Assembly: GCF_030384885.1 (NCBI RefSeq)
Contig: NZ_CP128613.1
DNA from: Escherichia coli
Lineage (GTDB): Bacteria; Pseudomonadota; Gammaproteobacteria; Enterobacterales; Enterobacteriaceae
Reading direction: 5' to 3' (one strand)
Length of the DNA: 64,000 bases
The translations under genes and the position numbers were made by a program. Below, piece after piece: positions 4,598 to 12,165 of this stretch (the first letter of the stretch is position 1; every line of letters begins with the position of its first letter). The notes beneath the pieces are model-generated. The model saw only the letters and a list, made by a program, of their open reading frames with translations, ran no database searches and had not been told where the DNA came from.

Positions 4598-4811
4598 CGC
4601 GCACCTCGTGGCTGATTATGGACGGCGTTATTGGCAAAGTGGAACAAGACTCACTCCCGGGTCAGCAAACTCGAAAAATTGACGCTCCCATTATTTGTGC
4701 TTTCGTTTTTTTCTATCCGCCAATAAACCCGTTTTTTTGTTGCTATTTAGCGCCTTTGTCTTATTGACTTACTGGTAGGCTTTGCTACCAGAAATTATCC
4801 GGGAGATGAAA
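4598..4811. promoter_or_regulatory. Divergent fliF / fliE promoter region (flagellar class 2, FlhDC-dependent by established knowledge)
   Basis: 214-bp AT-rich interval between divergently oriented fliF and fliE; individual boxes not mapped. Confidence 0.5.
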
Positions 4812-5126
4812 ATGTCAGCGATACAGGGGATTGAAGGGGTTATCAGCCAGTTACAGGCTACGGCGATGAGTGCGCGTGCGCAGGAATCACTACCGCAACC
4901 GACCATTAGTTTTGCTGGGCAGCTGCATGCCGCGCTCGATCGCATAAGCGATACACAAACCGCCGCCCGCACGCAGGCAGAAAAATTCACCCTCGGCGAA
5001 CCCGGCGTGGCGTTAAACGATGTGATGACCGATATGCAAAAAGCCTCAGTTTCTATGCAAATGGGGATTCAGGTGCGTAATAAGCTGGTGGCGGCGTATC
5101 AGGAAGTGATGAGCATGCAGGTGTAG
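4812..5126 (+). CDS. fliE: Flagellar hook-basal body protein FliE
   Basis: 104-aa product [24 protein letters not shown]... from ATG at 4812; the track ORF 4782..5126 has a 10-codon upstream extension. Confidence 0.93.
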
Positions 5127-5470
5127 GTTTTGTAACCTGTTGACTATGCTTGTTTAATTATATCCGATCCCACAGCGTGGGGCATGGATGGGGCAAACTC
5201 ACTCAATTTCTGGTTTAAAATGGATACCTGATCCTGGTTGTTTTCTGCCATCCACGATCCGTAAACGCGATAAAATGTTTTGTCTTCGCTTTGCTCATAG
5301 GAAGAGTGAACTCTTTCGTTAGCCTGGGGTTCCTTCTGATCATTATTGTTCCTGCCTTTATCTCTTGCCACGCCAGAGCCCCCTGGATACACACACACCA
5401 GGATGAAAACGGTGAGTTGTGTTCAAACTGTAGTACAATTCTCTCCAGTATGAACAGGAAAGAATATGCT

Positions 5471-5803
5471 ATGAACCCTTATATTTATCTTGGTGGCGCA
5501 ATACTTGCAGAGGTCATTGGTACAACCTTAATGAAGTTTTCAGAGGGGTTTACACGGTTATGGCCCTCTGTTGGCACAATTATTTGCTATTGTGCATCAT
5601 TCTGGTTATTAGCTCAGACGCTGGCTTATATACCTACAGGGATTGCTTATGCTATCTGGTCAGGAGTCGGTATCGTTCTGATTAGTTTGCTTTCCTGGGG
5701 ATTTTTTGGCCAACGACTGGACCTGCCAGCCATCATAGGCATGATGTTGATTTGTGCCGGTGTGTTAGTCATTAACTTGTTGTCACGAAGTGCACCGCAT
5801 TAA
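5471..5803 (+). CDS. emrE: Small multidrug resistance (SMR) efflux transporter EmrE
   Basis: 110-aa product MNPYIYLGGAILAEVIGTTLMKFSEGFTRLWPSVGTIICY... inside track ORF 5291..5803; four hydrophobic segments; RBS-like aggaaag upstream. Confidence 0.85.
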   Translation: MNPYIYLGGAILAEVIGTTLMKFSEGFTRLWPSVGTIICYCASFWLLAQTLAYIPTGIAYAIWSGVGIVLISLLSWGFFGQRLDLPAIIGMMLICAGVLVINLLSRSAPH

Positions 5804-5971
5804 AAAATAATTATCCTTGAGACAACAGGAATGTAATTTGTGCATATTATGGCTAATGTTGAGGGCAACTTTATAATTATGATTGCATTTGCACGATCAT
5901 TGCGCCTTTATGCATAATGAGAGCAAGGCACATCAAATAAAATAACGATAGGTCACAACAAAGAGGTTTTT

Positions 5972-6523
5972 ATGAAAAAGCTTATCGTTTCAAGTGTATT
6001 GGCATTCATAACATTTTCTGCGCAGGCCGCAGCATTTCAGGTCACTAGTAATGAAATAAAAACAGGAGAGCAACTTACAACGTCTCATGTATTTTCTGGA
6101 TTTGGGTGTGAGGGGGGTAATACATCGCCCTCATTAACCTGGTCTGGTGCTCCAGAAGGCACCAAAAGCTTTGCCGTAACTGTGTATGATCCAGATGCGC
6201 CTACAGGCAGTGGATGGTGGCACTGGACGGTTGCTAATATTCCAGCAACGGTAACATATTTGCCCGCTGATGCAGGAAGACGTGATGGTACAAAACTTCC
6301 GACTGGTGCTGTCCAAGGCCGAAATGATTTTGGCTATGCAGGATTTGGTGGAGCATGTCCTCCCAAAGGAGATAAACCCCATCATTACCAGTTTAAAGTA
6401 TGGGCTCTAAAAACTGATAAGATTCCTGTAGATTCTAATTCCAGCGGAGCGTTAGTTGGTTATATGCTTAATGCCAATAAAATTGCAACCGCTGAGATAA
6501 CACCCGTTTATGAGGTAAAGTAG
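5972..6523 (+). CDS. ybcL: Periplasmic PEBP/RKIP-family protein YbcL
   Basis: 183-aa ORF with N-terminal signal peptide MKKLIVSSVLAFITFSAQAAAF; matches YbcL as I recall it. Confidence 0.8.
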   Translation: MKKLIVSSVLAFITFSAQAAAFQVTSNEIKTGEQLTTSHVFSGFGCEGGNTSPSLTWSGAPEGTKSFAVTVYDPDAPTGSGWWHWTVANIPATVTYLPADAGRRDGTKLPTGAVQGRNDFGYAGFGGACPPKGDKPHHYQFKVWALKTDKIPVDSNSSGALVGYMLNANKIATAEITPVYEVK

Positions 6524-6532
6524 GATAAGAGT

Positions 6533-7330
6533 ATGCTGGCAAAAGATAGGACTAACCTAAAGATTGAAGAAATACGGATGCATAAACATCATGAGATTCA
6601 CAGGGTTAAGCCTCTTATGCCAGCTTTATGTCGTATCCGTCAGGGAAAAAAAGTTATCAATTGGGAGACGCATAGTCTAACTGTTGATAATAATCAGATA
6701 ATATTATTTCCCTGTGGATATGAATTTTATATTGCGAATTACCCAGAAGCAGGTCTTTATCTTGCAGAAATGCTTTATTATCCCATTGATCTAATTGAAA
6801 AGTTCCAAAATCTTTATGCGATAACCGATCAAATTCGTAACACGACAGGTTTCTGCTTACCTCAGAATCCTGAGTTAATATATTGTTGGGAGCAACTAAA
6901 AACATCTATTTCCCGAGACTTCTCAACGCAAATTCAGGAACACTTAGCAATGGGCGTTCTACTTTCATTAGGAGCACATCATGTTAATTGTTTACTTTTA
7001 TCAGATAGTAAACAATCATTAATAAGTCGTTGTTATAACCTAATGCTATCCGAACCTGGAACAAAATGGACAGCAAACAAGGTAGCGAGATATCTCTACA
7101 TTTCTGTTTCCACATTGCATCGCCGTCTGGCAAGCGAGGGAGTAAGTTTTCAAAGTATATTGGACGACGTGAGGTTAAATAATGCGTTGTCTGCTATACA
7201 AACGACAGTAAAACCCATCAGCGAGATTGCCAGGGAAAATGGTTACAAGTGTCCTTCTCGTTTTACTGAAAGGTTCCATAATCGTTTTAAGATAACACCA
7301 AGAGAGCTAAGAAAAGCGTCCAGAGAGTAA
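6533..7330 (+). CDS. ybcM: AraC-family transcriptional regulator YbcM
   Basis: 265-aa ORF; C-terminal AraC-type helix-turn-helix region (...[41 protein letters not shown]...). Confidence 0.8.
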
Positions 7331-7339
7331 AAGTATTTT

Positions 7340-7459
7340 ATGAAGGAGCAACAGCATCGATTTTTATTTTGGAAAATAAATACGGCATACTCAACCTATT
7401 GGAGCCTGAACAATCCGGTGACTTCTGCGCTAATCGGGGACGTTTATAAGCACATATAA
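7340..7459 (+). CDS. Hypothetical 39-aa small ORF immediately after ybcM (possibly a ylcH-like small protein)
   Basis: ATG 7340 to TAA 7457-7459, MKEQQHRFLFWKINTAYSTYWSLNNPVTSALIGDVYKHI; below the ORF-track size cut-off; no independent support. Confidence 0.2.
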   Translation: MKEQQHRFLFWKINTAYSTYWSLNNPVTSALIGDVYKHI

Positions 7460-8019
7460 TTGATACTATCTTCCTCCATCACAATTTCAGAAATGCACGT
7501 GTGATTTTTTTGCATCCGGCGTTTGGACTATGTGGAGTTCAAGAGTGGGAAAGTTACAAGAGGTTGAGGGGATAATTAAAGGGATGCTTATGACATTAGA
7601 TATCCGGATAGGTACGGATATCGTTGTTATTAAATCTAGTTTATACGTTAAGATGCAGCTACAGCAGAAATTACCACTGTTAATTTTTTCATCGTGAGCC
7701 CTTTTATTTGTACTATTATTTAAAAATGATGTCACTGCACTACAAATACTCATCTAATCAATGAGATTATTTCAAGATGTAAGTTTTAGTTTCTCATTTA
7801 AATTGTGAAGCAGATCCCTCCTTTTATCTGAACTGTTTCTATTGTACACAATGCATGACTATTTTGTGAACGAATATAAATTTGGTAGTCAAATTATATT
7901 AAAGGTTGTTATTTATGATTGACTCATAATTTATTTTTTTAATTTAAATAACCTAATAATAACCATGGAGATTATTTGCATGATATTTGTTTAGACTTGT
8001 TAATGTAATTGAGGTGATT

Positions 8020-8694
8020 TTATTTAATACGCAATATAGCGCCGCTTGATATTAGTTCTATTTTTTTTTGCGTAAGATAGATGAGACAAACTGAGACGCA
8101 TAATGGTTTGCAAGGCTCTAATACTTTGATGTTGAGGATGTGATGGGGCATGTACGTGCATAGTACAATGATGTCCATGCCGGTGTAGATAATCTCCAGG
8201 CTTATCCGGTGCGCCGTAAAACCCCGTCCTTCAGGGCGGGGATATAAGGCGCGGTTTTCCACCTGACCAGGTGTTTGCTGTTGTTCAATGTATTGGCGGA
8301 TGACGGACATTGGCGCACCTCCGCAGCTACTGGCAAAATTGCCAGGACTCCACAAAACGCCTTTGTAGTAATACCTGACTGTAATATCTGGTCGATCTCG
8401 TCGCAGTAACCTACCCGATACGCCTTTGAGGCTGTTTACCAGACTGGATATCGCCAGTTTGGGAGGATAGTTAATTAACAAATGGACGTGATCTGGTTCG
8501 CCATCCATTTCAACCAGTTCAGCTTCAAAATCAGCACATACATTTGAAAAGTAAGTGCGTAGTTTTTCTGTCGCGTCATGGTCAAAAATCTGGCGTCGGT
8601 ATTTGGTGACAAAGACCAGGTGAACATGCATCAGGAAAACACAATGCCTTCCACGCCGGATATCGGTTTCTTTTTTCACAGACCAAAGTATCAT
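8020..8694 (-). CDS. tnpA: IS200/IS605-family HUH (Y1) transposase TnpA; conserved core is about aa 1-145, and the ORF continues a further ~80 codons with no stop
   Basis: HUH motif (DHVHLLINYPP), ...HVHLVFVTKYRRQ... and catalytic-Tyr region ...GGAPMSVIRQYIEQQQ align with IS608/IS200 TnpA; similarity ends near nt 8275. Confidence 0.7.
   Translation of the reverse strand: MILWSVKKETDIRRGRHCVFLMHVHLVFVTKYRRQIFDHDATEKLRTYFSNVCADFEAELVEMDGEPDHVHLLINYPPKLAISSLVNSLKGVSGRLLRRDRPDITVRYYYKGVLWSPGNFASSCGGAPMSVIRQYIEQQQTPGQVENRALYPRPEGRGFTAHRISLEIIYTGMDIIVLCTYMPHHILNIKVLEPCKPLCVSVCLIYLTQKKIELISSGAILRIK
8222..8241 (+). repeat. Left-end subterminal imperfect palindrome (hairpin) of the IS200/IS605 element
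   Basis: ccccgtcc-ttca-gggcgggg: 8-bp stem with one G:T position and a TTCA loop. Confidence 0.6.
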
Positions 8695-8701
8695 TTGACC
8701 T

Positions 8702-9910
8702 GTGAAACGATTACAGGCATTTAAATTCCAGTTAAGACCCGGTGGTCAACAGGAGTGTGAAATGAGGCGCTTCGCAGGCGCATGTCGTTTCGTTTTCAAT
8801 CGTGCTCTGGCGCTTCAGAATGAGAATCATAAGGCCGGTAAGAAATACATCCCTTACGGGAAAATGGCTTCCTGGCTGGTTGAGTGGAAAAATGCCACTG
8901 AAACGCAATGGCTTAAAGATTCGCCCTCACAGCCATTGCAACAGTCACTGAAAGACCTTGAGCGGGCTTACAAAAACTTCTTCCAGAAGCGGGCTGCTTT
9001 TCCCCGATTCAAAAAGCGGGGACAGAATGATGCATTCCACTACCCGCAGGGCGTTAAGCTCGATCAGGAAAACAGCCGTATTTTTCTGCCGAAACTTGGC
9101 TGGATGCGCTACCGGAATAGCCGTCAGGTCACGGGTGTTGTGAAAAATGTCACTGTCAGCCAGTCCTGCGGTAAGTGGTACATCAGTATTCAGACAGAAA
9201 GTGAAGTATCAACTCCGGTTCATCCTTCAGCATCAATGGTCGGGCTGGATGCTGGCGTGGCTAAACTCGCCACGCTGTCAGATGGCACAGTCTTTAAGCC
9301 TGTAAACAGTTTTCAGAAAAACCAGAAGACGCTGGCGAGACTTCAGCGACAGTTAAGCCGCAAGGTCGAATTCAGCAATAACTGGCAGAAGCAGAAACGC
9401 AAAATACAGCGACTGCATTCCCGTATCGCAAATATCCACAGGGACTACCTTCACAAAGTCACAACGACCGTCAGCAAAAACCACGCAATGATAGTCATTG
9501 AGGATTTGAAGGTCAGCAACATGTCAAAGTCAGCAGCGGGTACGGTCAGCCAGCCGGGGCGCAATGTCCGGGCAAAATCAGGTTTAAACCGTTCGATACT
9601 GGATCAGGGCTGGTATGAAATGCGCCGCCAGCTTGAGTACAAGCAGCTCTGGCGTGGCGGTCAGGTGCTTGCTGTTCCGCCAGCGTACACAAGCCAGCGT
9701 TGCGCGTGCTGTGGTCATACAGCGAAAGAAAATCGCCTGTCACAAAGTAAATTCAGATGCCAGGTATGTGGATATACAGCGAACGCCGATGTAAACGGCG
9801 CTCGTAACATTTTAGCGGCGGGGCACGCCGTTCTTGCCTGTGGAGAGATGGTGCAGTCAGGCCGCCCGTTGAAGCAGGAACCCACCGAAATGATTCAGGC
9901 GACAGCCTGA
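8702..9910 (+). CDS. tnpB: IS200/IS605-family TnpB (OrfB; RuvC-like RNA-guided nuclease family), apparently intact
   Basis: 402-aa ORF, GTG start at 8702. N-terminus [13 protein letters not shown].. resembles ISDra2 TnpB; RuvC-I (MVGLDAG), RuvC-II (IVIEDLKV), Cys4 zinc finger (CACCGH...CQVCGY) and RuvC-III ([10 protein letters not shown]) all present. Confidence 0.85.
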
Positions 9911-9970
9911 ACGTAGCAGGGATCCACGTCCTTCAGGGCGTGGAGGATGTCAACAAACAGGTTGAATTAA
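9790..9970 (+). ncRNA. Predicted TnpB-associated omega-RNA (right-end RNA): scaffold over tnpB 3' end plus right-end hairpin, guide from flanking DNA
   Basis: Inferred from the established architecture of TnpB elements; no sequence-level RNA model was fitted and the extent is approximate. Confidence 0.3.
9924..9943 (+). repeat. Right-end subterminal imperfect palindrome (hairpin) of the IS200/IS605 element
   Basis: ccacgtcc-ttca-gggcgtgg: same stem/loop layout as the left-end hairpin, including the G:T position; 14 nt after the tnpB stop. Confidence 0.6.
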
Positions 9971-10621
9971 CTCCGCGCCCTGGTTTTTGACATTACCCAC
10001 CGCGCGCGACACAGGGTGCCAGGTGAACTGGTTTGCTGGAACACAGCCACTGGCAGCAATTTCAGAGGCTTCTTTACCGCTAATCTCTTGCCGCATCCAT
10101 TCCCGCGCAGCTTCTGGCGACAGTACCAGCGGGCGGCGGTCATGAATATCTACCAGACCCTGGTCTGCTGCTGCAGTGACAATTAAAAATCCTTCGGCTT
10201 CGTCACCACGCTCAAACGGTGTGCTACCTATCGCGGCTATAAAAACAGGTTGTCCATCAGCGCGATAGATAAAATAAGGCTGTTTTTTGTCGCCTTCTTT
10301 TTTCCACTCAAACCAGCCATCGGCAAAACAGATTGCCCGACCATGTTGCCAGAGCGGTTTAAACATACGACTGGTTGCCGCAGTTTCTACGCGGGCGTTA
10401 ATCAGCGGCGGTTTATCCCACCATCCGGGAGCATATCCCCAGAAAACCGGATCCAGATGAAGGTGTTCATCACGTTCACTGAGCAGAAGAACTTTGGTTC
10501 CCGGCGCGACGTTGTATCTGCCAATAGGTTCGGGATCGTAGGGAATATCGCGTTCAATATCTTCCGCGAGAAGCGCAAGGTAATCTTCACGCGTTTGGGA
10601 TTGGGTAAAGCGTCCACACAT
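9950..10621 (-). CDS. yedK: SOS-response-associated peptidase (abasic-site processing protein) YedK
   Basis: 223-aa ORF starting MCGRFTQSQTREDYLALLAEDIERDIPYDPEP... (SRAP family, catalytic Cys2); C-terminus ...AELIQPVC sits at the IS right end. Confidence 0.88.
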   Translation of the reverse strand: MCGRFTQSQTREDYLALLAEDIERDIPYDPEPIGRYNVAPGTKVLLLSERDEHLHLDPVFWGYAPGWWDKPPLINARVETAATSRMFKPLWQHGRAICFADGWFEWKKEGDKKQPYFIYRADGQPVFIAAIGSTPFERGDEAEGFLIVTAAADQGLVDIHDRRPLVLSPEAAREWMRQEISGKEASEIAASGCVPANQFTWHPVSRAVGNVKNQGAELIQPVC

Positions 10622-10697
10622 AGCAACCTCCTGAGATCATACTGAAAAGAATAGGAGAGGGGGCGGGTAAAATCTATGTGATACAGAGGTAACGATG

Positions 10698-10722
10698 TTC
10701 CCGCTGTTGGCCACAGCGGGAA
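10698..10722. other. Perfect 9-bp inverted repeat (hairpin) between yedF and yedK
   Basis: ttcccgctg-ttggcca-cagcgggaa; no adjacent T-run, so not a canonical terminator. Confidence 0.3.
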
Positions 10723-10729
10723 TGAGGGA

Positions 10730-10963
10730 TTACTTCTGAATTAAATAACGAATGGTCGGCCCGTCTTGCTGAATATCCAGCACCGTATAGCCGTGATTAC
10801 GCGCATCCAGTGGAATATTATTGATCGACTGCGGACAGTCGCTCACCACTTCCAGGATCTCACCTTTTTTTAACTGCGGCATCGCCTCAAGGGTTGCAAC
10901 TGCCGGATAAGGGCAGGGTTCACCCACCATATCAAGGCGGTAATCAGGAACGATATTTTTCAT
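10730..10963 (-). CDS. yedF: TusA-like sulfurtransferase-family protein YedF
   Basis: 77-aa ORF MKNIVPDYRLDMVGEPCPYPAVATLEAM... with the CPxP motif. Confidence 0.88.
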   Translation of the reverse strand: MKNIVPDYRLDMVGEPCPYPAVATLEAMPQLKKGEILEVVSDCPQSINNIPLDARNHGYTVLDIQQDGPTIRYLIQK

Positions 10964-12165
10964 GCGATCTCCTTGGCTGTCTGCGGTGCCGCACGGCGGA
11001 AGAAGCGTTTTTCCCAGCCGATAATCAACATCAGCGCAGCAAACAGCAGCAAATATGTCACCAGCAGGCCACCCATCGGACCAAAGGTTTTCAGTAGGTT
11101 GATTTTGTCCCAGTCGGTGGCCAGCGCCGGAGCGAAATCATCCCAGTAATACGCCAGAATCGTTGAGCCGATCACATTGCCCAGACCGACCCACCAGTAG
11201 TGCACCTGGCCTTCTACCGCGCGGTACATCCAGCCGGTTTCGCAGCCGCCTGCCAGCACGATGCCAAATCCAAACAGCAAACCACCAATTACCGCGTTTG
11301 GACCTGCCCACATGATTTTGGGTTCAACGCCTAACTGTACGTAACTGAAGATCCCGATGGCACTTACCGCCATACCGATAATAATTGCTTTCGCCATGTG
11401 GGTACGTCCGGTGATCCACATATCGCGGAACGCCGAAGTAAAGCAGATTTGCGCACGTTCAATCAGTAAACCAAAGCCGACGCCAAACAGCATTGCCAGC
11501 CCCAGTTTTGGTTGGTTCATCGCCGTCAGTAGCGCCCAGCCCAGCATGCCGAAAAAGACCAGCATCCCGAGACGAAAACGACGCCGCGCCTGATCCGGTT
11601 TTTGCGTCAGCGGTGAGGCGGCAGAAACTTTCTGCATTTTCACGGGAATACGGAAGATGGGCAGCAGGGTAAAGCGCGCGCCAAACCATGAACCAATGGC
11701 AGTGGCGATGGCAAAGAACCAGGCATGCAGCGAGAACTGAGGAATGCCGGTAAAGAACGCCGCCAGGTTACAGCCCATTGCCAGACGCGCGCCAAAACCG
11801 GCGATAATGCCGCCAATGATGGCCTGCATAATGCGGATACGGCTGCGCGGCATGCGTAGTTTGACATTGTTGGCCCACAGCGCTGCAGCAAAGCAGCCGC
11901 CAAACATACCGAGGATCATCATTCCGTCGATGCGGGTTAATGGCGATCCTTCCAGATGAATAATTTTAAAATAACCCCACTCTTCAGCATGGACGCCAAA
12001 CAGCTGCAAAACCTGACCGCCCCAACGGGTAAATTCACCCGTGACTGCCCAAAAGGTGCCAGTGATGCCAAAATAGTAAGTGGAGAGAATACCCGCCGCG
12101 ATGACCGCGGGGATGGGCGCCCAGAATTTAATCAACCAGGCGTGTTTGAATTGCTGCCATGACAT
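10960..12165 (-). CDS. yedE: Inner-membrane transporter-like protein YedE (selenium/sulfur-related)
   Basis: 401-aa polytopic membrane ORF; 4-nt overlap with yedF start (translational coupling). Confidence 0.85.
   Translation of the reverse strand: MSWQQFKHAWLIKFWAPIPAVIAAGILSTYYFGITGTFWAVTGEFTRWGGQVLQLFGVHAEEWGYFKIIHLEGSPLTRIDGMMILGMFGGCFAAALWANNVKLRMPRSRIRIMQAIIGGIIAGFGARLAMGCNLAAFFTGIPQFSLHAWFFAIATAIGSWFGARFTLLPIFRIPVKMQKVSAASPLTQKPDQARRRFRLGMLVFFGMLGWALLTAMNQPKLGLAMLFGVGFGLLIERAQICFTSAFRDMWITGRTHMAKAIIIGMAVSAIGIFSYVQLGVEPKIMWAGPNAVIGGLLFGFGIVLAGGCETGWMYRAVEGQVHYWWVGLGNVIGSTILAYYWDDFAPALATDWDKINLLKTFGPMGGLLVTYLLLFAALMLIIGWEKRFFRRAAPQTAKEIA

Follow-up and report, generated by a model that had tools for sequence, protein, structure and literature searches.

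What is the AT-rich stretch that follows ybcM in Escherichia coli, and does it encode anything? The stretch is part of a 64,000-nucleotide segment of the chromosome (NZ_CP128613.1), the whole of which is called the window here. Positions 7331-8206 are very probably the collapsed remains of the late-control region of a DLP12-like lambdoid prophage from which a porin gene was deleted, with no protein of its own and with an orphan promoter that may still fire but probably has no selected function. This answer is developed below from the deleted porin gene, the promoter that it left behind, the small open reading frames (ORFs), and the borders of the prophage relic.

Location and composition of the spacer

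The local gene order is fliE, followed by emrE, ybcL, and ybcM (plus strand), the spacer, an IS200/IS605 element with a tnpA pseudogene (minus strand) and insQ/tnpB (plus strand), and finally yedK (minus strand). Positions 7331-8200 are identical (100%) to the record of E. coli 2013C-4282 (NZ_CP027579.1), where PGAP places zero features between ybcM and tnpA and 7331-8206 is unannotated. Fittingly, the initial annotation, which was made from the letters of the window, had described an AT-rich unannotated spacer of ~870 bp after ybcM. The GC content is 33.6% in 7331-8200 (33.6% also in 7331-8206) versus 50.1% in the whole 64-kb window. The 300 bp with the lowest GC content in the whole 64 kb are 7705-8004 (24.7%), and 300-bp intervals with ≤30% GC make up 0.8% of those in the 64 kb. 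A GC content markedly below that of the surrounding genes had been claimed for the entire spacer. This holds for 7693-8030 (25.7%), which is the sole part markedly below its neighbors, but not for 7331-7651 (37.7%), which resembles ybcM (37.6%). The A/T homopolymer runs that had been pointed out are present (T7 at 7505, T6 at 7684, T7 at 7934, and T9 at 8061).

Two small plus-strand ORFs, at 7340-7459 (39 aa) and 7584-7697 (37 aa), were found again where they had been placed, and the minus-strand frame that had been mentioned spans 7487..7753 (88 aa). It had been overlooked that the tnpA pseudogene reads through in a 224-aa ORF (8020..8694, minus strand), which overlaps the last 180 bp of 7331-8200, and the border on the IS side, initially set at 8200, lies at 8206/8207. 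A scan of 6000-11000 with the Rfam 15 covariance models (E ≤ 1) yields zero matches within 7331-8206; the matches in the scanned range are sub-threshold and are located at 9783-9966 in the right end of the IS. Pfam and NCBIfam searches of the 39-aa and 88-aa ORFs and of a 55-aa ORF that contains the 37-aa frame return noise only, and a repeat search of the stretch finds short repeats at chance level only.

Acquired DNA that is silenced by H-NS is AT-rich, and 7705-8004 has this property. The H-NS motif TCGATAAATT, allowing up to two mismatches, has no match in the stretch, where ~1 is expected. H-NS binding of the AT-rich stretch is plausible, as its composition fits, although the motif search is negative. 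A literature search for DLP12 and H-NS found no paper on H-NS occupancy of the nmpC promoter.

A porin gene reduced to its start

The island that harbors the spacer exists in a more complete form in strains E11 and CFT073, in which the minus strand encodes an intact 360-aa porin between ybcM and yedK. The E11 porin matches Porin_1 (E = 1e-153) and is 90% identical to Lc of phage PA-2. In the alignment to the E11 locus (L003), window positions 5201-7651 correspond to L003 2328-4778, and window positions 7652-8206 correspond to L003 6001-6556. Compared to E11/CFT073, L003 4779-6000 is missing, which amounts to 1,222 bp and comprises the Q-porin intergenic region, the porin terminators, and porin codons 15-360. 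Two features mark the site:

7651/7652, no strand: junction of the 1,222-bp deletion, from the alignment to E11 locus L003
7692..7648, minus strand: porin stub, ATG plus 13 signal-peptide codons (MKKLTVVISAVAAS) followed by a TAA made by the junction, from an exact string and the alignment to lc/nmpC

On the minus strand, 7692-7648 reads ATG AAA AAA TTA ACA GTG GTA ATT TCT GCT GTA GCT GCA TCT TAA, and the stub aligns to the lc/nmpC start in PA-2, DLP12, 434, and E11. A complete porin ORF (~360 aa with a Porin_1 match) is not found in the window, which carries a porin remnant and no porin gene. The neighborhood of the stub is that of the phages: 6 nt separate a 3′ fragment of a Q antiterminator gene (plus strand) from the junction to the porin stub (minus strand), the two are convergent, and DLP12 and 434 have them in the same order. 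Among 5,426 complete E. coli genomes, positions 322-870 of the spacer query match (~96%) strains that have a porin annotated under the match.

As a partial coding sequence with its start codon survives in the window, and as phages have a contiguous order of Q, porin, and upstream region, the difference between the alleles is best read as a deletion in the window lineage and not as a gain in E11. An origin of the porin-bearing allele by insertion is rejected on the ground of the retained partial coding sequence. No microhomology is seen at the 7651/7652 junction, which is common to all window-type strains and strain HS. An IS-mediated deletion is likewise rejected, given that the junction is 555 bp away from the IS and contains no IS sequence.

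The promoter region left behind

The deletion spared the DNA upstream of the porin gene. The following features are assigned to it, the promoter elements as predictions from alignment and consensus:

7693..8030, minus strand: orphan lc/nmpC-type upstream region (5′ UTR, Shine-Dalgarno at 7705..7693, promoter), from phage and K-12 homology
7775..7770, minus strand: predicted −35 element, TTGAAA
7751..7746, minus strand: predicted −10 element, GAGTAT (GAATAT in the other copies)
near 7743-7738, minus strand: predicted start site
within 7819..7802, minus strand: predicted CRP-like TCACA half-site, corresponding in position to a CAP site that the PA-2 record annotates

In the phage genome search, query positions 322-700 show ~81% identity over 379 nt to the lc/nmpC start and its upstream region in 40 lambdoid phage records (E down to 1e-94), including PA-2 and 434, which identifies the region as homologous to lc/nmpC. 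On the 7652-8206 side, the upstream region is 96.8% identical to the intact island copy in E11. The alignment of the window, E11, PA-2, DLP12, and 434 is near-invariant from about −190 to the ATG. A promoter scan finds three promoter-like sites versus 4.3 expected, and thus no enrichment, and a consensus scan chose another hexamer pair (7870..7841), specific to the island copies, over the aligned elements.

The homologous promoter of K-12 is described in the literature. PnmpC, contained within −199..−1, depends on sigma-70, is activated by CRP, and is repressed by OmpR, IHF, and MprA (PMC11677980). In K-12, nmpC is upregulated 16.5-fold at 37 °C (PMC8544407), and the “nmpC precursor/c2348” of CFT073 is induced at 37 °C at the mRNA and protein level (PMC12890032). 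Judging from gene order, c2348 is probably the island porin of CFT073. By analogy with these homologs, the orphan promoter may still fire toward ybcM and is probably thermoregulated or silenced in the same manner. The terminator scan finds no minus-strand terminator between the stub and ybcM, as the porin terminators are deleted, so any transcript would run into the 3′ end of ybcM.

Locus states across E. coli genomes

The frequency of each state of the locus was counted in 5,426 complete E. coli genomes. Roughly 2,100 of them (roughly 40%) carry the 7651/7652 junction, from which it follows that the porin deletion is old and widespread. A colinear match to ≥80% of the 870 bp is found in 1,032/5,426 genomes and the spacer-IS junction in 1,093/5,426, while the intact porin segment with ≥99% identity to E11 occurs in ~587/5,426. 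A further 1,109/5,426 genomes carry an allele of the type found in strain HS. In the HS-type allele, a second deletion of ~670 bp took place between 8-bp repeats GCAGCTAC at 7655 and 8323 (8-bp microhomology). It removed the orphan promoter, the left end of the IS, and the 3′ end of tnpA, and ends inside tnpA. About half of the carriers of the porin deletion have therefore later lost the orphan promoter, which argues against strong selection to keep it. In ~1,030 genomes the orphan region is kept largely intact (94-98% identity); neutrality explains this retention, although the counts do not prove it.

The alternative that survives best assumes that the promoter and the 5′ UTR were retained for a function, either as the source of an antisense transcript into ybcM or as a decoy for the small RNAs that act on nmpC/ompD leaders. 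In its favor, −100..−1 is ~91% identical to the active PnmpC of K-12, the window and the intact copy of E11 differ at 6/199 positions, and the region persists in at least 1,032 genomes. PnmpC in K-12 is moreover active and transcribes through the IS5-disrupted gene (PMC11677980). Leaders of nmpC are reported targets of RybB and RyhB, and the missing terminator would open the way into ybcM. Against it, the region is cleanly deleted in 1,109 genomes, no other segment of the locus diverges as much among strains as 7801-8030 (91-97%), and the window carries a substitution in the proposed −10 element (GAATAT to GAGTAT). Furthermore, the predicted orphan transcript (7745..7560, minus strand) folds no better than shuffled sequences (z = −1.0) and has zero Rfam matches. 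A retained function is thus unlikely. Slightly less likely still is its most specific form, in which a PnmpC-type promoter would be active and temperature-/CRP-responsive, the unterminated transcript of the leader and 14 codons would reach the 3′ end of ybcM, and this transcript would regulate the AraC-type regulator YbcM (convergent/antisense) or decoy RybB/RyhB-type small RNAs. If true, an active orphan promoter would explain why the region is retained in ~1,000 genomes. In the preferred reading, the collapsed late-control region, the orphan promoter is taken to be without a selected function.

Origin of the small ORFs

The part of the spacer to the left of the porin deletion is composed of two prophage fragments, in which both small plus-strand ORFs are located:

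7331..7537, plus strand: relic of the DLP12 spacer ybcM-ylcH-ybcN(start), from homology to K-12 DLP12
7547..7645, plus strand: 3′ fragment of a QuuD-type Q antiterminator gene, last ~30 codons (99 nt), from nucleotide and protein homology
7599..7622, plus strand: hairpin with an 8-bp stem inside the Q fragment, from the terminator scan, also in E11
7620..7639, no strand: 20-bp unit TCGTTGTTATTAAATCTAG(T/C), from an alignment of six strains

The first fragment forms the end of a 1,715-bp high-scoring pair with K-12 DLP12 (89.6%) that spans ybcL and ybcM and extends into the ybcM-ylcH-ybcN spacer. On its own, 7331-7537 is 78.8% identical to DLP12 versus 91.1% for ybcM, a stronger divergence that is expected of noncoding DNA. 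The equivalent of ylcH (~7447-7537) is dead, as its ATG has become ATA and an early stop follows.

The second fragment shares 82% nucleotide identity with the 3′ end of quuD in K-12 and Q in phage 434. Upon translation, 19/30 residues (63%, E = 4e-11) are identical to the C terminus of QuuD (stretch KLQEVEGIIKGMLMTLDIRIGTDIVVIKSS, QuuD RLQKAEGIIEGMLMALDIRLEMDIVVNNSN). A full-length Q ORF is not present: the last 30 of 127 residues align and the stop is lost. With ~97 N-terminal codons missing, the fragment cannot act as an antiterminator. The Q stop is kept in strain E11, but in the window lineage TGA has changed to TTA and the frame stays open to 7697. This run-on Q frame crosses the deletion junction into the antisense strand of the porin stub. 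The 37-aa ORF starts at an internal ATG of the resulting 55-aa ORF (7530..7697), and its last 15 codons are antisense to the stub. As far as the alignments tell, the 37-aa ORF is the tail of a Q pseudogene that continues past its lost stop and is not a gene. The hairpin is the sole terminator-like hairpin in the spacer, lacks a convincing U-tract, and is probably incidental. The 20-bp unit is present in one copy here and in two or three copies in other strains of the six-strain alignment. All variants of the island share an older deletion that extends from the ybcN equivalent to nt 285 of Q and corresponds to 1,782 bp in DLP12 coordinates.

The initial annotation had left room for one or both plus-strand ORFs as real small proteins. 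In favor of this, both ORFs are present, the 39-aa ORF is intact or nearly so in six island-bearing strains, and the paralogous spacer of K-12 has an annotated small protein, YlcH. The conservation of the 39-aa ORF among the island strains is, however, that of all flanking DNA (99-100% identity), and the frame is not maintained in the paralogous copy, as neither start nor coding bias is kept there. Its ATG is AAG in K-12 DLP12, one frameshifting indel separates the copies, and the 20 substitutions are spread evenly over the codon positions (7/7/6) versus 15/12/44 for ybcM between the same pair of copies. Because of the absent start, the indel, the flat distribution of substitutions, and zero family matches, the 39-aa ORF is judged noncoding. 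The ylcH equivalent is without its ATG, and the 37-aa frame is open only through the stop mutation of this lineage. Genuine small-protein genes are therefore very unlikely and this explanation is largely refuted; the small ORFs are by-products of the fragments, and the stretch encodes no protein of its own.

The right end and the IS609-like element

To the right of the orphan promoter region, the prophage relic ends and the chromosome resumes shortly before the IS:

8031..8166, no strand: island-specific DNA with 41% GC, which E11 and CFT073 also carry upstream of their porin gene and which neither the phage copies nor K-12 contain
8167..8188, plus strand: imperfect copy of the last seven fliE codons, ATGATGTCCATGCCGGTGTAG, compared with GTGATGAGCATGCAGGTGTAG at 5105-5126 (17/20 match)
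8189..8206, no strand: core chromosome downstream of yedK, 18 nt ending in TTATC, 100% match to K-12
8207..9954, plus strand: IS609-like IS200/IS605 element, from annotation and the E11 empty site
8263..8694, minus strand: tnpA pseudogene, stop changed from TAG to CAG, read-through ORF to 8020
8702..9910, plus strand: tnpB/insQ, from annotation

The island-specific DNA in 8031-8166 has no match in phages, DLP12, PA-2, 434, or the yed region of K-12. The copy of the fliE end, also detected in a comparison with CFT073, stops exactly where identity to K-12 downstream of yedK resumes (8189). It looks like an attR-type repeat at the right end of the prophage relic. An intG remnant is found beside fliE, and together with the fliE 3′-end repeats it looks like the attL/attR pair of a prophage whose integration site was the 3′ end of fliE.

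The element that follows has the properties of IS200/IS605 (IS609) members: it contains tnpA and tnpB, carries subterminal hairpins, lacks a target duplication, and is inserted 3′ of a short conserved motif. The hairpins read from the sequence are CCCCGTCC-TTCA-GGGCGGGG on the left and CCACGTCC-TTCA-GGGCGTGG on the right. The TTATC flank is likely the IS609 target motif; other IS609 copies share a CTTATC flank, and their match begins at 8201/8202. In E11, the empty site reads ...GGCTTATC/AAACAGG (the slash marks the insertion point), which places the IS inside the stop codon of yedK. The right end of the IS supplies a new yedK stop and adds one residue (...PVC).

The idea of a decayed, phage-derived module, put forward in the initial annotation, is borne out by 7331-7537, 7547-7645, and 7652-8030, each of which is homologous to DLP12/lambdoid DNA. 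A lack of homology to phage DNA, which had been named as the outcome that would speak against this idea, is not what was found. The phage origin thus stands, while the identities of the porin promoter and stub and of the Q fragment had been missed. Ordinary chromosomal intergenic DNA that is AT-rich by chance or through H-NS-related selection is the least probable explanation: the blank annotation and the missing matches of 7331-7651 and 8031-8206 in the phage collection are in its favor, but it is refuted by three segments that match DLP12/lambdoid DNA in the correct order and orientation, by the fliE 3′-end repeats that bound the island, and by the different DNA of K-12 at the fliE-yedK site (yedL, yedN, and the intG pseudogene).

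Proposed course of decay

The collapse of the late-control region would have proceeded in steps, of which the homologies, the breakpoints, the polarity of the deletion event, and its population frequency are shown. A DLP12-like lambdoid prophage would have integrated at the 3′ end of fliE and would then have shrunk to an island of 3 kb between fliE and yedK, made up of emrE-ybcL-ybcM and the spacer. The older deletion, common to all island variants, would have taken the nin genes and most of Q and left 99 nt of its 3′ end. Subsequently, the 1,222-bp deletion without microhomology would have eliminated the Q-porin intergenic region together with codons 15-360 of the leftward lc/nmpC (OmpD-type) porin gene. 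The porin ATG, 13 codons, the Shine-Dalgarno sequence, the 5′ UTR, and ~500 bp of very AT-rich upstream DNA would have been left over. Next to the spacer, on its right, the yedK stop codon holds the IS609-like element.

The stretch is a case of ordinary gene decay, a stack of prophage pseudogene fragments and not a new kind of element. With its identification, ~880 bp to which PGAP assigns no feature can be labeled in >1,000 complete E. coli genomes. The proposed labels are a fragment of a Q pseudogene, the stub of a porin pseudogene together with its orphan promoter, and an attR-like repeat, and the two small ORFs can be dismissed in annotation. The series of three states (intact porin, porin deleted, promoter deleted) illustrates the stepwise decay of a prophage, and the locus states could serve as a lineage marker.

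Comparison with known systems

Literature searches for nmpC and ybcM, DLP12 and H-NS, and c2348 found no paper that describes this island. K-12 DLP12 carries a paralogous emrE-ybcK-ybcL-ybcM module at 568 kb. The locus is not DLP12 itself, a possibility that is rejected, but a second, paralogous, and much smaller relic between fliE and yedK.

The orthologous locus is the island with the porin (WP_000737290.1) in CFT073 and E11, the flanks of which are 97-98% identical. The difference is that the window lacks the porin gene body, the terminators, and the Q-porin intergenic region. The allele of E. coli HS shares the identical 7651/7652 junction but, unlike the window, has undergone the further deletion between the GCAGCTAC repeats plus a tnpB-yedK deletion. 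Compared to QuuD and other lambdoid Q proteins, the fragment is without the ~97 N-terminal codons, and the late promoter region that follows Q is missing as well.

The known systems that the stub resembles most are lc of PA-2 and nmpC of K-12 DLP12 (qsr′), OmpD-type porin genes of lambdoid phages that are located between Q and the lysis genes on the opposite strand. The window has the same gene start, with one residue differing in the first 14 codons, and the same Shine-Dalgarno sequence and 5′ leader, with ~81% identity over ~340 bp upstream, whereas farther upstream, past about −340, it shows no relationship to the phage copies. As in lc/nmpC, the porin is placed next to the 3′ end of Q in the opposite orientation. 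The window also resembles K-12 nmpC in its fate, as in both cases the gene is inactivated and the promoter region survives. The lesions differ: K-12 nmpC is nearly full length and carries IS5 near its 3′ end, while the window lost codons 15-360. The locus represents another independent loss of a prophage-borne OmpD-type porin, beside that caused by IS5 in K-12 nmpC.

Island borders and probable prophage origin

The emrE-ybcL-ybcM island, a small lambdoid prophage relic between fliE and yedK, is delimited in the window by the following features.

5105-5126 and 8167-8188, 3′-terminal fliE sequence as an imperfect direct repeat, flanking the whole island
about 5127-8188, island
about 5140-5273, intG-homologous remnant, adjoining fliE

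Because of these flanking fliE repeats and the intG-homologous remnant beside fliE, the sequence suggests that a prophage was once integrated into the 3′ end of fliE.

Deletions and a small repeat in the spacer

7620-7639, 20-bp unit TCGTTGTTATTAAATCTAG(T/C), end of the Q fragment (the 3′ end of a QuuD-type antiterminator gene)
7655-7662 (porin stub) and 8323-8330 (tnpA), 8-bp repeat GCAGCTAC
4800-4825 of the E11 locus (L003), G+C-rich hairpin GGGGCGTTGAAACGCCCC, downstream of the porin, absent from the window
4915-4940 of the E11 locus (L003), G+C-rich hairpin GGGAGGCAAAGCCTCCC, downstream of the porin, absent from the window

The segment that is present in strain E11 and missing from the window harbors both hairpins and the Q-porin intergenic region. 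In DLP12, the late promoter and the IpeX sRNA are located in the equivalent of the deleted Q-porin segment. None of these features is left in the window. The 20-bp unit in the Q fragment is a small VNTR, present in one, two, or three tandem copies depending on the strain (window; L008, L009, L011). The HS-type allele, in which a second deletion additionally takes the orphan porin promoter, is found in 1,109 complete genomes, and GCAGCTAC is the microhomology of this second deletion (L007 5320-5335).

The IS609-like element and yedK

8020-8694, minus strand, tnpA read-through ORF (224 aa versus 143)
8702-9910, intact tnpB/insQ
9950-10621, minus strand, yedK

The stop codon of tnpA is gone at 8263-8265 (minus strand; CAG here versus TAG in strain AMSCJX04), and the ORF therefore extends past the left end of the element into the spacer; tnpA is annotated as a pseudogene by PGAP. 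The 3′ end of tnpB and the right end of the element are where a TnpB guide (omega/right-end) RNA is expected, and sub-threshold Rfam matches to HgcC, RAGATH-18, and sot0042 are grouped there (9783-9966, plus strand). The element is inserted within the yedK stop codon (9950-9954), and its right end (…TCAAC) supplies a new one, so that YedK ends in …IQPVC (223 aa), whereas the shorter form of E11, CFT073, and K-12 ends in …IQPV (222 aa).

Comparison with other strains

In CH10468, the emrE-ybcL-ybcM block is inverted between two IS1 copies, one on each side, beside a truncated rcsA; this arrangement is an IS1-mediated rearrangement of the fliE-yedK island. CFT073 contains an additional porin gene in the drpB-hchA interval (L013 15820-16878), with some 25 kb between it and the porin of the island. 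This additional gene is neither the island copy nor the prophage nmpC (c1560) to which PMC12890032 refers. K-12 differs at the fliE 3′-end site itself, where another relic (yedL, yedN, intG) takes the place of the emrE-ybcL-ybcM island.
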